Positions 1 to 7,121 of a stretch of 7,121 nucleotides of DNA are shown here, piece after piece. The notes under the pieces were generated by a model. That model had not been told where the DNA came from, did no database searches, and saw only the letters and a program-made list of their open reading frames with translations. How positions within the stretch are numbered: the stretch's first letter is position 1; each line of letters opens with the position of its first letter. The DNA comes from Octopus sinensis (lineage: Eukaryota), in contig NW_021829006.1 in assembly GCF_006345805.1 (NCBI RefSeq), positions 1 through 7,121 of the forward strand, written 5' to 3'. The position numbers and the translations under genes were made by a program.

Positions 1-1524
1 AAACCCTTCCTTAAACATATCGATAGCCATATCAGAGATGACTTGGATATGTTAAACCACCTTCCAAAAAAGCCAAGGAAGAAACAATCATGGTTTCATT
101 TGATGTAGTTAATTTATATACCAGTATACCTCATAATTATGGACTAGAGGCAATACAGTTCTGGCTGGACCAATTTCCGGCAGAAATACCGAAAAGGATC
201 AGTAAAGAATTCATTACTAAATCGGTTGAATTCATCCTACATAATAACCACTTCATGTTTGACAATACATTTTACCGTCAAAAATCCGGAATTGCTATGG
301 GTACAAGGGCAGCACCAGTCATTGCGAACCTAACAATGGGCTACCTGGAAATAATTATTTACCAGAAATCTTTATCAACCTTTGGAAACCCCCTCTCTCA
401 ATACATAAATGAGAATTGGAAACGATTCCTGGACGATTGTTTTATACTCTGGAATGAAAACACAGATAAACTCCTAAAATTCAAAAACCTATTGAACAGC
501 ATCAACCCAAATATACAGTTCACAATGGAATACAACCAAAAGGAGCTCCCATTCTTAGATATACTAATTAAAAAAATTAACCTTAAAATAGAAACAGACA
601 TTTTTTTACAAAGCCACAGACGCCAAACAATACCTACTTTTTGATTCATGCCACCCAAGACACACTAAAACAAACATCCCTTTCAACCTTGCAAGAAGGA
701 TATGCACAATAGTGTCAGAACAAAATACCAGGAACTTTAGACTACAAGAACTCAAAAACACCCTAATTGACAGACACTACCCAGCTCAACTGATAGAGGA
801 TGGGATCAGACGTGCAACAGAAATCGACATAGAAACTTTGAGAAAAGTTCAACACAACAATACACCTTCCCCGAAAATACTGCCTTACATATCCACATAC
901 AACCCCAGAAACAAAGAAGCCTTCATCATTATCACCCAGAATTTACCAATACTTCATAAGGACCCCAAATTAAAGGAAATTCTAAACATACATAAAATCA
1001 TTCAAAGCTACAAACAACCTAAATCACTCAAAAAGATTCTCACAAAGGCAAAATTGCTTTCTGAAATTACGGATGCAAAAGTAAAAAAATGTGGTAGACC
1101 AAACTGTGCAACATGCCCAAACCTTCTAGAAGGACCAGAATTCCTCTTCAAAGAGGGACAAAAATTCAAGATCAAATCTAATTTTACTTGTGCCTCTGAA
1201 AACATAATTTATGTCATAAGATGCTCGGGCTGCCACCAAAACTACGTGGGGTCCAAGGGACTATCACTAGACGTAGAGATGCACACTGCATCGACAACAG
1301 ATTGCATTCCCAGAATACAGAATGATACCCTTAGTGAGCATATTGAGAAATGCGCAAAGCAACTACTACCACAATTTTTAATCTTTCCATTTTATCAATG
1401 TGCTATTGGAACACCAACACAAATTAGACTAAACAAGGAAACATTCTTCATTGAAAAATATATGCCCAAACTTAACCACTCTAACATTCTTATACAGAGA
1501 AACTCACCCCATTATATTTTTTAA
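1..1524 (+). pseudogene. Frameshifted PLE polyprotein (reverse transcriptase + thumb + Cys-rich linker + GIY-YIG endonuclease), N-terminus truncated by the window
   Basis: Frame 1 KPFLKHIDSHIRDDLDMLNHLPKK (1-~71) shifts at the A6 run 66-71 to frame 3: AKEETIMVSFDVVNLYTSIP, GIAMGT (288-305), WKRFLDDCF (FLDD 426-437), LPFLDI. It shifts again at the T7 run 601-607 to frame 1: YKATDAKQYLLFDSCHPRHTKTNIPFNLARRICTIVSE, CGRPNCATC (1090-1116), NIIYVIRCSGCHQNYVG (1201-1251), KETFFIEKYMPKLN, stop at 1522-1524. No premature stop is needed in the reconstruction apart from the disturbed 1267-1279 stretch. The indels could be sequencing errors. Confidence 0.88.
1201..1476 (+). other. GIY-YIG endonuclease domain with PLE-type CCHH motif
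   Basis: IIY...YVG bipartite motif with CxxC between (1222-1233). R-x3-H (RCTLHRQQI) reads in frame 2 from 1277, then SEH in frame 1, a putative catalytic Glu (1438-1440) and terminal P-x-L-N. Confidence 0.85.
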
Positions 1525-1626
1525 AATATTTTAAAAGGCCAAGAAATATACTGGAAGAAATCACTTATTATCTCCCCTTACCTGGAACTTTCCTTTACAC
1601 TTAACGAAATCATAACACAATGTTTT

Positions 1627-1666
1627 GAGAAATTTGAAAAGTTAAACACGAAACCGGTAATTTCTC
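1627..1666 (+). ncRNA. Minimal type I hammerhead ribozyme, U3:A8 core variant
   Basis: Stem I GAGAAAT (1627-1633) pairs perfectly with ATTTCTC (1660-1666). Core TTGAAAA (1634-1640) is CUGANGA with C3U+G8A. Stem II GT/AC (1641-42/1648-49) has a 5-nt loop, followed by GAA (1650-1652), palindromic stem III ACCGGT (1653-1658) and cleavage triplet GUA (1657-1659). It lies just 3' of a PLE ORF, where such motifs are expected. Confidence 0.82.
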
Positions 1667-1750
1667 CATGTCACTGTATGAAAAAAAATTTATAACATTC
1701 TTCTGACATAAGACTCAAATATATATTTTTAACCTTTTACAACAAGCCTG

Positions 1751-1758
1751 TATATATA

Positions 1759-1827
<69 letters not shown>

Positions 1828-2118
1828 TATTATATATATATAATATATATATATAGTATATATATATATCTATATATATAGTATATATATATATATATTA
1901 TATCTATATATATATTATATATATATATATATATTATATTATATATATATATATCTGTATATATATATATCTGTATATATATATATATCTGTATATATAT
2001 ATATATCTATATATATATATATATATAGTTATAATATATATCTGTATATATTATATATATATATATATCTATATATACTGTATATATATCTATATCTGTA
2101 TATATTATATATATATAG

Positions 2119-2178
<60 letters not shown>

Positions 2179-2312
2179 CTGTATATATAACTATATATTA
2201 TATATATATATATATAATATATATATATAATATATATCTATATATATATAATTTATATATATAGTATATTATATATCTGTATATATATATATATATATCT
2301 GTATATATATCT

Positions 2313-2345
<33 letters not shown>

Positions 2346-2380
2346 CTATATAATATAGATATATATATATATATAATAGG

Positions 2381-2414
<34 letters not shown>

Positions 2415-2709
2415 TACGATATATATATATATAATATATATATACCGATATATATATATACAGATTATATATATATATATCTGTATCTATATATATCTAT
2501 TTTATATATATCTACTCGGTATATATATATATCTATATATATAGTAAATATATATATATCTGTCTATATATATATATATATATCTGCTATATATATATTA
2601 TATATATATATATATATTTAAAGATATATATTATATCTGTATATATATATATATATATAATATTATTATATATACAGATATTATATATAGATATATATAT
2701 ATATATATT

Positions 2710-2787
<78 letters not shown>

Positions 2788-2892
2788 TATATATATATAT
2801 ATATATATATATCTATATATTTAAATATATATATATATATCTGTATATATCTCTCTGTATGATATATATCTATCTATATATATATATATATA

Positions 2893-2973
<81 letters not shown>
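1751..2973. repeat. Long degenerate (TA)n microsatellite, ~1.2 kb
   Basis: Directly visible TA repeat with recurrent TCTG/TCTA/CAGA interruptions; purest at the two ends. Confidence 0.98.
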
Positions 2974-2975
<2 letters not shown>

Positions 2976-3087
2976 CCTTCGTCGTGACAAGACGTATTTT
3001 TCATAGCTCTCGTCAATAACTTTTCACAGCTCCCGTCAGTAACCAAAGAAGCATATTTCAGCTCAAGTCAACAGAAACTCTCCATGT

Positions 3088-3121
3088 TTTTAATCTCAAA
3101 ACTTTTAATCTCAAAACTTTT
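3088..3121 (+). repeat. 15-bp tandem duplication (TTTTAATCTCAAAAC)x2
   Basis: Exact copies at 3088-3102 and 3103-3117, followed by TTTT. Confidence 0.9.
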
Positions 3122-3590
3122 GAATTCTACATCCTAATATTATACTTTTTACTACCGTCGGAGGATTAATTTATAAAAATTATACACAAACTGAGAGGAA
3201 GAAAGAAAAATATAACCAAAACTAAACCCAAGACTAGTTCTAAAACTAGTACCGTGAATACAATTCTTCTTTCTTTTTGCTTGATCTGTATTAAACACAC
3301 CGCTCATCCTGATTGTACTAAATACACAGAATTCTCCCACACACAAGCCACGCATTTCCGAGTATATCGACACAAACTTTTCAACGGCGTATTCACTATT
3401 TTACATCAAGCCATCAATAACTGGTGTATATATACACGCATACACATACATATATATATTACACAATACTGTCCCACTGAATATGACCAATAATATTCAA
3501 AAACGCCAGTGGGTTGAAAATGAAATTACTGCAATGATAAACGCTTGGTTCATTCATCACAATGAAGCTAATGTTTACAGTAAAATAGCT

Positions 3591-3785
3591 GAGGAGTACT
3601 ACCAGGATCTCTACTCACGATAGACCACGATAGCTGAGGCTGCAATCGAGGGTGTCAAGATCTTGCCAGTCATGTGTGAACTTGACAGTCTGCCATCTAT
3701 AGCAGAGCTCACCAAGGCTATTGACTCCCTAGCAAGTAACAAGGCTCCGGGAAAAGACAGCATCCCCTTAGATATCATCAAATCT
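3591..3785 (+). mobile_element. Degenerate non-LTR retrotransposon fragment, RTE-like (region just upstream of and entering the RT domain)
   Basis: Frame 3 reads EEYYQDLYSR*TTIAEAAIEGVKILPVMCELDSLPSIAELTKAIDSLASNKAPGKDSIPLDIIKS. It contains the LINE 'ELxKAIxxLxxxKAPGxDxIP' motif (KAPG starts at 3741) and an in-frame TAG at 3621-3623. The RTE assignment is from recalled resemblance. Confidence 0.85.
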
Positions 3786-3786
3786 C

Positions 3787-3824
3787 TAACCATAGATATT
3801 AGATATTTAACCATAGATATTAGA
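3787..3824 (+). repeat. 17-bp direct repeat TAACCATAGATATTAGA x2 (period 21)
   Basis: Exact copies at 3787-3803 and 3808-3824, immediately after the LINE homology ends. Confidence 0.9.
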
Positions 3825-4529
3825 CACAAATGAAGTAATATTTATAAAATTTCATCTTCTTACAAAGTTAGAAAGACCCCTCCATGGGTACTTAACACCC
3901 ACAATTTTGTCATTTTATCTAAGCAAAAACGAATACAGTTGTGCTCTTGGAAGCTGTAGGGTTACCTGAGCATAAATGTTGGGCATTATTTCTAGTTCAA
4001 TGGTACAACAGTGTAACAGTTTGCTTTGACATACACTTTCATTGTGATTTCTGCAATGTTCGTGCATAAATTGTTAAGTAAAAATGAGGCATCTTTGTCT
4101 CCACTGATTCAGTTGCAAAGTGTTGAGTAAAGTTATTTGATTGCAGACCTCCTTTCAGTCTTTTTATTATCACTCGGTCACACATAGTCCCCAGATGGTA
4201 ACATTGATTACAAGGCCTTCCCAGATGAGTGACTGGTTATTCAAAGACATTTAAAGATTTTAAATTCATTCTGTCCAGTTACGTATCAGTATAGTGGTCA
4301 TTTGCGCAAACTCCAAGGTGACACTTTAATTTCTCCTAAGCCCTCCGTCACACTGTTGATTTCAGTGGGTCACGCCCTTCCAATTGCTATAGATTCGTAA
4401 TGCATCTTACGGTTGTGCCTGTCACCGGAATGGTGAGGATCCTACATTGTGGGAGTGGTAACGACTAAGGTAGGGTAACTGACTGCTTATTGTGATCATT
4501 CTCTTTTGTTTCCATGTGACACGATTACA

Positions 4530-4679
4530 ATTTTTTAGGGTGTGTAAAGAGGGAAATAACCCTCATCTGAAATTTTGATGAAATTCGAAACATAGATATT
4601 CCAGTTCATTCAGAAAATATAACAGAAAAGTCTAATTCTTCAATTGAATGTAACCGGGCCACGCGGGTATCTCTGCTAG
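4530..4679 (+). mobile_element. Probable 3' end of a non-autonomous Helitron (5' boundary undetermined)
   Basis: A GC-rich imperfect hairpin ACCGGGCCACGCGGGT (4653-4668) sits in AT-rich context. After a 7-nt spacer comes CTAG (4676-4679), followed by T and an (AT)n run. This matches the hairpin + CTRR|T Helitron terminus. Confidence 0.62.
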
Positions 4680-4767
4680 TATATATATATTTGAACTCTC
4701 TTTCACTCTTTATATATATATTATATATATATATATATATAATATATATATAATATATATATATATA
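4680..4767. repeat. Short (TA)n tracts
   Basis: (TA)n at 4680-4690 and ~4710-4767. Confidence 0.9.
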
Positions 4768-5477
4768 CATAGGTTTTCCGAGGTTTTAGTTGGTTTTGGA
4801 TTATCATTGAATCTACTGTAACTTTGCATTCTCCAAGTAAGGTTAACAGCCGTTCATACCTCTGGAAAGAAGTAGCCCACATTAGTCTGACCTCTGTCCT
4901 TTGACCTGTCCAGCATGAAATGCCCTATCAGAACTCGCCATCTCGCGGGATGGGGGTGACGAATTCATTGAAGCACAGAAGAGAGACACTTTCGTTAAAG
5001 ACTGGACCTTGTGGTTGCTATAACATTATTATCCAATATTATTTTTTTTTCTGAACATTGTGAGGAAGATTCGACTGCTATTTCTAGCTGGTCGAGTGGC
5101 TTATACAGAGGCTCTCTCGCTGGCTCGTGACATTGGTGTATTGCGGAGGGAGAGGGAGTCGATGTCAGCAGAACAAGAGATAACGCTGTAAGTAAAAGCT
5201 ATTGGTATTAGTGTTTGTGGTGACACTGACGATGATGATGATGAAACTTATGTCCATGCTGCTGCTACTGGTGATAGGAAGAGCAATGCGCATGCGTATG
5301 GAACGGTGAGGTGTGGTGTGGGTGGTAGTTGCGGTGGTAGCAAGAACAATGGCATCAGTGGCGTAAACATAGTAAAATGGTGGTACGTGAGGTTGAATAA
5401 GTGGAGTCTTTATACATATGCCGGTTATTTGACGTTAGCAAGACTTTAACAGCCACCACACCCTTTCTTCTCTTCAG

Positions 5478-6048
5478 TGTGTACGTGTGCCTGTATGTGT
5501 GAGTGCGTGCTTGTGTGTGTGCGTGTGTGTGTGTGTGCGCGCGTGTGTGTATGCGTGGGTATAAGTGCGTGCTTGCGTACTAGTGTGTGTGTGTGTATGC
5601 GTAATGCTTATATGTGCAAGTATGTATGTGCGTGCGTATGCGTGTGTTGCGTGTGTGTGCATGCATATGGGTACGTGTATGTGCGTAATGCTAGTATGTA
5701 TGGGCGTGTGTATGCGTGTGTGTGTGTATGCGCGTGTATACGTAATGCTTTTGTGCATGTGCGTGTGTATGCATGTGCGTGTGTATGTATGTGCGTGTGT
5801 GCGTGCAGATGGGGGCGTGTGTATGCATGTGTGTGCGTATGTGTATGTATGCGTAATACTAGTGTGTATGTGTGTGTGTGCGTAAGTGCTTGCGTGTATG
5901 TGTGTGCGTATGTGTGCGTGCGTATGGGTGTGTGTGTATGCGTGTGTATACGTACGTGCTTGTGTGTGTGTATATGAGCGTACTTGTGTGTGTGTGAGTG
6001 AATGTGCATGCATGTGTATGCGTACGTGCTGGTGTACGTGTGTGTGTG

Positions 6049-6102
<54 letters not shown>

Positions 6103-6135
6103 ATATACGTGTGTGCATGCTTATGTGTGTGTATG

Positions 6136-6178
<43 letters not shown>
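5478..6178. repeat. Compound microsatellite: degenerate (TG/CG/TA)n, with (TA)n at ~6052-6107 and pure (TG)n at ~6144-6177
   Basis: About 700 bp of near-continuous purine-pyrimidine alternation, directly visible. Confidence 0.97.
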
Positions 6179-6180
<2 letters not shown>

Positions 6181-6336
6181 CATCTTCCCCGTCATTGATT
6201 GTTTACATGTACAACAATGTCTTCTTAAGCTTATGATCAATGAATCGTTGCACCGCCGCCTTCCATGGCCCCCACCATTAATAATGCTCCCCATAAGGAA
6301 CCTCACAGTCTCCACTATTTATTACCGCTGACACAC

Positions 6337-7110
6337 ACCACCACCCCCACCACCATTATCACCATCATCGCTATCATTACCATCATCACCGTCATCATCA
6401 TTATCATCTCAACTACCAGCATCTCTAGTATCACACCACCATCACCACCGCCATCACCGTCACTACTTCCTCCGCCACAATCACCACCACCACCACTACC
6501 ATCACTGCTTCTACCATCGCCACCGCCATCACTTGCATCATCATCACCACCACTACTACTACTACCGCCACCATCAGCATCATCATCACCATCGCCATCA
6601 CAAGCACCATCGTCAATAGCATTATTATTACTACTTCTATCGCCACAACCACCGCCACCACCACAATCACCACAACTACCATCCACCACCACCATCACCA
6701 ATACTACCACCATCACTACCGGCATTTCCACCACCACCATCACCATCATCATCACTACTTCCACTGCCACAACCAAAACCACCACCACACCACTACCATC
6801 ACAACCACCACCACAATCACCACCACTACCATCCACCATTACCAATACTACCACCATCACTACCTGCATTTTCACCACCACCACAACCGCGTTCACCAGC
6901 ACCACCAGCATCATTATCACTACTTTTAGCACCACAACAACCACTGCTGCCACCACCACCACCAACACAATCAGCACCATCGTTTCCACCACCATCACTA
7001 TCACTATCGCTACTTCCAACATCACTTCCACAACCACTACCATCATCACCGCCACCACCACCATCACCACTACCATTGCTACTACCATCGCCACCACCAC
7101 CACTACTACC
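6337..7110. repeat. Degenerate trinucleotide low-complexity region (ACC/ATC/ACT)n
   Basis: Triplet periodicity throughout, giving stop-free frames on both strands (poly-T/P/I and poly-V/G/M). Confidence 0.95.
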
Positions 7111-7121
7111 TAAACATCTGC

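Follow-up and report, generated by a model that had tools for sequence, protein, structure and literature searches.

A U3:A8 minimal hammerhead motif in the pseudo-LTRs of a Penelope-like element lineage of Octopus sinensis

The window analysed here is a stretch of 7,121 nt from Octopus sinensis (assembly GCF_006345805.1, contig NW_021829006.1, positions 1-7,121, forward strand). It begins at base 1 of the contig and opens with a copy of a Penelope-like element (PLE) on the forward strand that runs off the contig start. The reverse transcriptase (RT) region occupies positions 1-644, as judged from a Pfam RVT_1 match covering 42-641 (E 2.6e-07) and from tblastn frames against an open relative. 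The ORF list and the similarity of relatives place the RT thumb, a CX4CxxC linker (~1090-1115) and a GIY-YIG endonuclease within 592-1524, a segment with 85% amino acid identity to the open relative L172; such open relatives show RVT_1 and a GIY-YIG match below the Pfam cut-off (E 2.7e-4 for GIY-YIG in relative L102). A 37-row alignment delimits the 3′ pseudo-LTR (pLTR) to 1525-1748, with a 3′ end shorter than that of the other copies, and in relatives pLTR sequence is also found upstream of the ORF start. The insertion is flanked by a (TA)n-rich microsatellite (1749-2972), and many relatives likewise end in (TA)n. A CX2-5CxxC linker marks Neptune/Nematis PLEs, and (TA)n is described as the preferred target type of linker-bearing PLEs (PMC8557442); by its sequence of RT, cysteine linker and GIY-YIG, together with pLTRs and a (TA)n target, the host element is classified as Neptune/Nematis type. 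The window copy carries frameshifts near 66-84 and 604-614 and a local disturbance of the frame at ~1256-1330 within the endonuclease; it is probably a remnant that is now inert, and because the element is frameshifted and its pLTR shortened, a role for this particular copy is doubtful. Further along, a short frame at 3624-3833, which we take to resemble the start of a LINE-type RT region, gave no Pfam match.

Within the pLTR, positions 1627-1666 (forward strand) hold an arrangement that the initial annotation had read as a minimal type I hammerhead. Read from the sequence, stem I is a perfect 7-bp pairing of 1627-1633 with 1660-1666, and it encloses the core TTGAAAA (U3-U4-G5-A6-A7-A8-A9), which fills all seven positions of 1634-1640. 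Stem II and its variable loop follow at 1641-1649; the stem consists of two pairs, G1641-C1649 and U1642-A1648, closing a loop of 5 nt. GAA (G12-A13-A14) lies at 1650-1652, the palindromic stem III sequence ACCGGT, which supplies A15.1 and U16.1, at 1653-1658, and H17 is A1659. The 3:8 pair is Watson-Crick compatible in the window copy, where it is U:A. Hammerhead positions are given in the conventional numbering. From this numbering, drawn as in Fig. 1 of PMC4209133, cleavage is predicted after A1659. The outermost stem I pair has a history of its own: most subfamily copies have G·U there and a 4-bp extension beyond it, and the window copy has G-C and no extension because of a private 7-nt deletion just behind the motif. 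The type I core, G12-A13-A14, A15.1-U16.1 and H17 are thus all in register, and together with the RVT_1 match and the position in the pLTR this bears out the assignment to a minimal type I hammerhead motif carried in the pLTR of a PLE, laid out exactly as first described.

Could such a layout arise by chance in AT-rich DNA? A relaxed descriptor of our own found 1627-1666 as its sole match on both strands of the window. Of 3000 dinucleotide shuffles of positions 1-1745, 24 contained any relaxed match, and a palindromic stem III was present in 0 of these. A look-alike would be compatible with the stability of the 40-mer, which is no better than that of its own shuffles (z -0.68), with monomer folding, which gave no signal, and with Rfam scans of the window and of 1500-1745, which returned no hammerhead model among matches at E<=10. 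Against it stand the shuffles, the fixed position of the motif in pLTRs, and the genome itself, where the U:A form of a sequence pattern built on the motif has 5,027 matches and its reversed control 5. These results already refute the chance reading, and we give it a vanishingly small probability.

The motif belongs to a populous family. A search with the pLTR as query returned 1,119 candidates, of which 40 were scored, and the resulting 37 aligned rows include the window copy and some near-duplicates. U3 and A8, whose conservation in family copies had been proposed as a check, are both kept in 36 of these 37 rows, the remaining one having a deletion across the core; the exact pattern of the window's subfamily has 283 matches in the genome (control 0). 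Conservation within this subfamily was set aside as uninformative, because the copies are close and the query contained the motif. A search with the 5′ end of the ORF, which is independent of the motif, fetched 36 loci. Two direct copies of the motif, as expected of full-length elements with a pLTR on either side of the ORF, are present in 12 of them, both exact in 8, and in 11 of the 12 the copies are spaced 3.93-4.00 kb apart. The 5′ copy lies 211-246 nt ahead of the putative ATG in relatives. A second copy upstream of the ORF, one of the checks set out in the initial annotation, therefore exists in relatives, although the 12 elements with two copies all belong to subfamilies other than that of the window copy.

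The initial annotation named, as part of what would refute it, a motif no better conserved than its flanks among family copies. To follow inherited changes along the lineage, 63 copies were collected by the 3′ end of the ORF, and a tree was built on the ORF 3′ region. Three copies were dropped (one without a pLTR and two near-duplicates), and changes on internal branches were counted in the remaining 60. An inherited change was found in 1 of 17 columns of the core and CCGG and in 77 of 160 flank columns (Fisher p 4.5e-4), the sole inherited core change being A8 to G. Positions 1650-1658 show no inherited change. Inherited changes are seen instead in loop II, at H17 and in a compensatory pair of stem II. 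Because many of the 63 loci had first been found through the motif, the count was repeated on 36 ORF-start rows, considering substitutions only and including both pLTRs of some elements. In these rows, the core alone (1/17) was compared with all flank columns (54/152, p 0.009), with well-aligned flank columns, which were chosen afterwards (24/100, p 0.08), and with third positions of the ORF (27/143, p 0.16); its conservation was not significantly higher than that of the last two sets. For the core with stem I (1/28), the corresponding values were p 2e-4, p 0.01 and p 0.03. Changes were frequent in loop II, N7 and H17, where 5 of the 7 columns were affected. The motif is thus conserved beyond its flanks along this PLE lineage, and the refuting outcome was not observed.

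A passenger reading was considered as well. According to this reading, the motif is an ancestral inheritance under little current selection, and its apparent conservation comes from the close kinship of the subfamilies. Lineage copies are 88-98% identical, the core alone does not differ clearly from third positions (p 0.16), and the idea that hammerheads may simply parasitise PLEs has been raised in PMC8557442. However, the flanks directly upstream are heavily changed while the core is unchanged, the core and palindrome persist with different stems in a family of only 57% protein identity, changes in stem II are compensatory, and the present data already lean toward a deficit of inherited core changes relative to synonymous sites. 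We consider a mere passenger very unlikely.

The stems and the core give a finer view of what has been kept across the 60 copies. The inner pairs of stem I are preserved in 57-59 of them, and the G10.1-C11.1 pair of stem II in 57. At the adjoining 10.2:11.2 pair, 21 copies have U-A and 39 have C-G, with zero mismatches, and the tree traces this difference to one event. Across families, stem II varies in sequence and remains paired (GT/AC, GC/GC, GGTC/GACC, GAGG/CCTC), and stem I differs as well, so that the covariation proposed as a check supports both stems. In the core, U3, U4, G5, A6 and A9 are present in all 60 copies, while A occupies position 8 in 51 of them and G in the other 9. The compensatory U3:A8 pair of the initial annotation thus holds for most of the lineage, but it is less strict than was implied, since sister subfamilies transposed with U3·G8. 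Nucleotide 1.1, the first of the 3′ strand of stem I, is absent from 23 of the 60 copies, leaving an extra base ahead of U3, and such subfamilies transposed, as did copies with a 1-bp stem II. Among individual loci, L147-L161, L109 and L110 have the extra nucleotide between stem I and U3, some of them together with U3·G8.

That elements propagated with U3·G8, with U3 preceded by an additional nucleotide or with a stem II of 1 bp raises the question of whether the motif still serves catalysis. A sequence derived from a hammerhead might now be kept mainly for a non-catalytic job: its palindrome might join RNAs into dimers, it might bind the element's protein, or, as pLTR DNA, it might be a promoter signal or mark a target of the endonuclease. 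The ACCGGT palindrome, which is never altered on inherited branches, would suit such a role; in addition, another PLE inserted in vitro without any need for cleavage (PMC11167929), and functions other than cleavage are left open in PMC4209133 itself. What speaks for catalysis is the identity of the constrained positions. The invariant set coincides exactly with the catalytic set G5, A6, A9, G12, A13 and A14; position 8 moves solely between partners of U3; and H17 is other than G in all but one of the 60 copies (A 37, C 21, T 1, G 1). Moreover, the youngest subfamily (L165-L176; 99.3% mean identity) has regular core spacing, and on the tree, read without a support check, it nests within the extra-nucleotide clade, as if the regular spacing had been regained. 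On balance, we regard a mainly non-catalytic role as rather unlikely.

Genome-wide counts were made with the pattern YTGANRAG-N4-20-CGAAACCGGT, whose matches are pattern matches without enforced stems. Within the ACCGGT class, the 5,027 matches of the U:A form compare with 99 of the C:G form (control 0), 55 of the C·A form (control 1; about 20 of the 55 from one tandem subfamily) and 196 of the U·G form (control 2). A canonical minimal-hammerhead pattern had at least 17,366 matches (control 113), and two large families dominate those listed. The proposal that U3:A8 is the majority form in this genome accordingly holds for the ACCGGT class and was rejected genome-wide: given the canonical count, U3:A8, which was counted in the ACCGGT class only, dominates only its own stem III class. 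With these numbers, and with two U3:A8 rows in part of Fig. S3 of PMC4209133, the view that such cores are a minority variant is sustained. Descriptors fixed on CUGANGA would miss approximately 5,000 such motifs in the O. sinensis genome.

Several families contribute to these counts. The U:A matches listed are dominated by the second PLE family (57% protein identity), in which core and palindrome are the same, stem II has 4 bp and stem I differs. Among the U3:A8 families, the most abundant is family B (L032-L060; L102:7140-7184), where the core is immediately preceded by sequence that ends in TTACAG and looks like an intron acceptor; this recalls the intron of Drosophila virilis Penelope that ends at helix I (PMC4209133). 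In a third PLE family (L070, L081, L185, L186, L194; ~50% protein identity), the palindrome is identical and the core is either C3:G8 or U3·G8; stem II has 2 bp closing a 3-nt loop, and stem I is very weak. Most C:G matches come from a tandem family of ~360 bp (L061-L090, L178, L179, L182, L183, L195), to which C·A, U:A and U·G copies belong as well. This family resembles retrozymes, and its canonical type I hammerhead is found with four different cores (C3:G8, C3·A8, U3:A8 and U3·G8). Since N7-G8 is a CpG there, U3:A8 could plausibly have arisen when the CpG decayed and position 3 then changed in compensation.

How two copies might act together was explored in folding models. A two-molecule cofold, with an ACCGGU duplex and swapped stems I, reached -17.7 kcal/mol, compared with -5.0 for the monomer. 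In this dimer model stem II is unformed and U3 is paired with A17. In a model tandem, the full double hammerhead lies at -11.5 against a minimum of -16.1, that is 4.6 kcal/mol higher.

Assembled contigs from seven runs (X1, X4, X9, X13, X15, X16 and X17), whose RNA labels are guesses and of which X17 is large and unlabelled, were inspected around the predicted cut site. In run X4, a contig of the window's subfamily with a depth of 828 stops at L098:8025, 5 nt before the predicted cut (after 8030); it shows no loose end, and nothing past it reaches a comparable depth. The end comes from one run of one study and falls short of the threshold for a weak hint; none of the contigs from X1, X9, X13, X15, X16 and X17 stops at this position, and contigs of the possibly-RNA runs X9 and X15 span the predicted cut site. 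We take the X4 contig end as a lead for cleavage in vivo and nothing further. A 70-nt joint seen in X4 and X13 was considered as an intron and rejected, because it is without GT..AG ends and its short side is 22 nt.

Taken together, we think it likely that the motif is a weak self-cleaving ribozyme, dependent on dimers and probably aided by protein, by which element RNA is trimmed out of longer precursors. The sequences themselves establish its anatomy, its place in the pLTR, the two direct copies in full-length relatives, the conservation along the lineage and the covariation of stem II; that it forms dimers, receives help from a protein and cleaves is what we infer from PMC4209133 and PMC11167929. 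According to the model, two copies, provided by the 5′ and 3′ pLTRs of one transcript or by two transcripts, would exchange strands of stem I and pair through ACCGGU in a stem III of 6 bp. In the active fold, U3:A8 would take the place of C3:G8. Because the folding models do not form the 2-bp stem II by itself, the element's protein or a host chaperone would probably stabilise it. Cleavage of element transcripts would then follow A17, in what is likely a dimer that likely has protein help, and the cut would release the element RNA from a read-through or tandem precursor.

A bolder version of the model is that this unusually stripped lineage, with U3:A8 or U3·G8, a stem II of 1-2 bp and tolerance of an extra nucleotide before U3, still cuts in vivo, the element's protein supplying the fold. 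We hold this to be improbable. On this reading, the X4 contig end would be the trace of a PLE hammerhead cleaved in vivo, for which RNA-seq ends at the cut were looked for and not found in the work described in PMC11167929, and the series of subfamilies would provide a natural allelic ladder with which to probe the purpose of PLE hammerheads. The lineage in any case offers young two-copy elements and natural core variants (U:A, U·G, extra nucleotide; stems II of 1, 2 and 4 bp), which would serve to ask if cutting by PLE hammerheads takes place in vivo and has any bearing on transposition.

The U3:A8 core itself is already on record. U3-A8 minimal hammerheads were published for Cercyon PLEs of Schistosoma mansoni, with ~1,300 hits (Cervera & De la Pena, 2014, PMC4209133), and U3/A8 covariation is documented for natural hammerheads generally (PMC3088659); the Octopus motif is another example of a variant known in PLEs since 2014. 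UUGAAAAA and UUGAUAAA cores are among the rows of Fig. S3 of PMC4209133, and UUGAAAAA and UUGAAGAA cores are likewise found in rows of that paper. The Cercyon hammerheads and the Octopus motif share the type I topology, the U3:A8 core, G10.1-C11.1 and the pLTR position, and both have a palindromic stem III predicted to pair in the dimer. Both also occur mostly as single copies in truncated elements, with some inverted pairs. Cleavage was reported to be low and confined to multimers or to constructs with an extended helix III (PMC4209133). The Octopus motif differs from the Cercyon examples in its longer stem I (7 bp), in its 4-nt CCGG palindrome in stem III, in the lack of an extra nucleotide after A9 and in its Neptune/Nematis-type host; its stem II has 2 bp, whereas the minimal hammerheads shown in that paper have 3-8. 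The common PLE minimal form combines an extra nucleotide between A9 and G10.1 with a long stem II, and the motif at 1627-1666 has neither; it therefore falls among the variants of PMC4209133, a class that also includes rows without an extra nucleotide after A9. One such comparison is the Marsupenaeus japonicus row of Fig. S3, which shares the short palindromic stem III, A17 and the lack of a 9/10.1 insertion but differs in its canonical C3:G8 core and 4-bp stem II.

Outside this set, natural hammerheads with U3/A8 covariation were reported as active in vitro, and 2-bp stems II as common (Perreault et al, 2011, PMC3088659). Insertions at 2a, adjoining position 3, were described in the same study and impaired cleavage. 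These variants resemble the Octopus lineage in U3/A8, in the 2-bp stem II and in the 2a insertion; unlike it, the 2a examples come from salterns and are not PLE-borne. A model for protein-assisted cleavage is the hammerhead of PAc (Poseidon) from Anolis carolinensis, which cleaves only with the element's protein; insertion in vitro proceeded without that cleavage (Frangieh et al, 2024, PMC11167929). Like the Octopus motif, it is a pLTR hammerhead upstream of the next ORF. It differs in having a canonical C3:G8 core and an ORF start inside stem II, whereas in the Octopus relatives the putative ATG lies 211-246 nt after U3.
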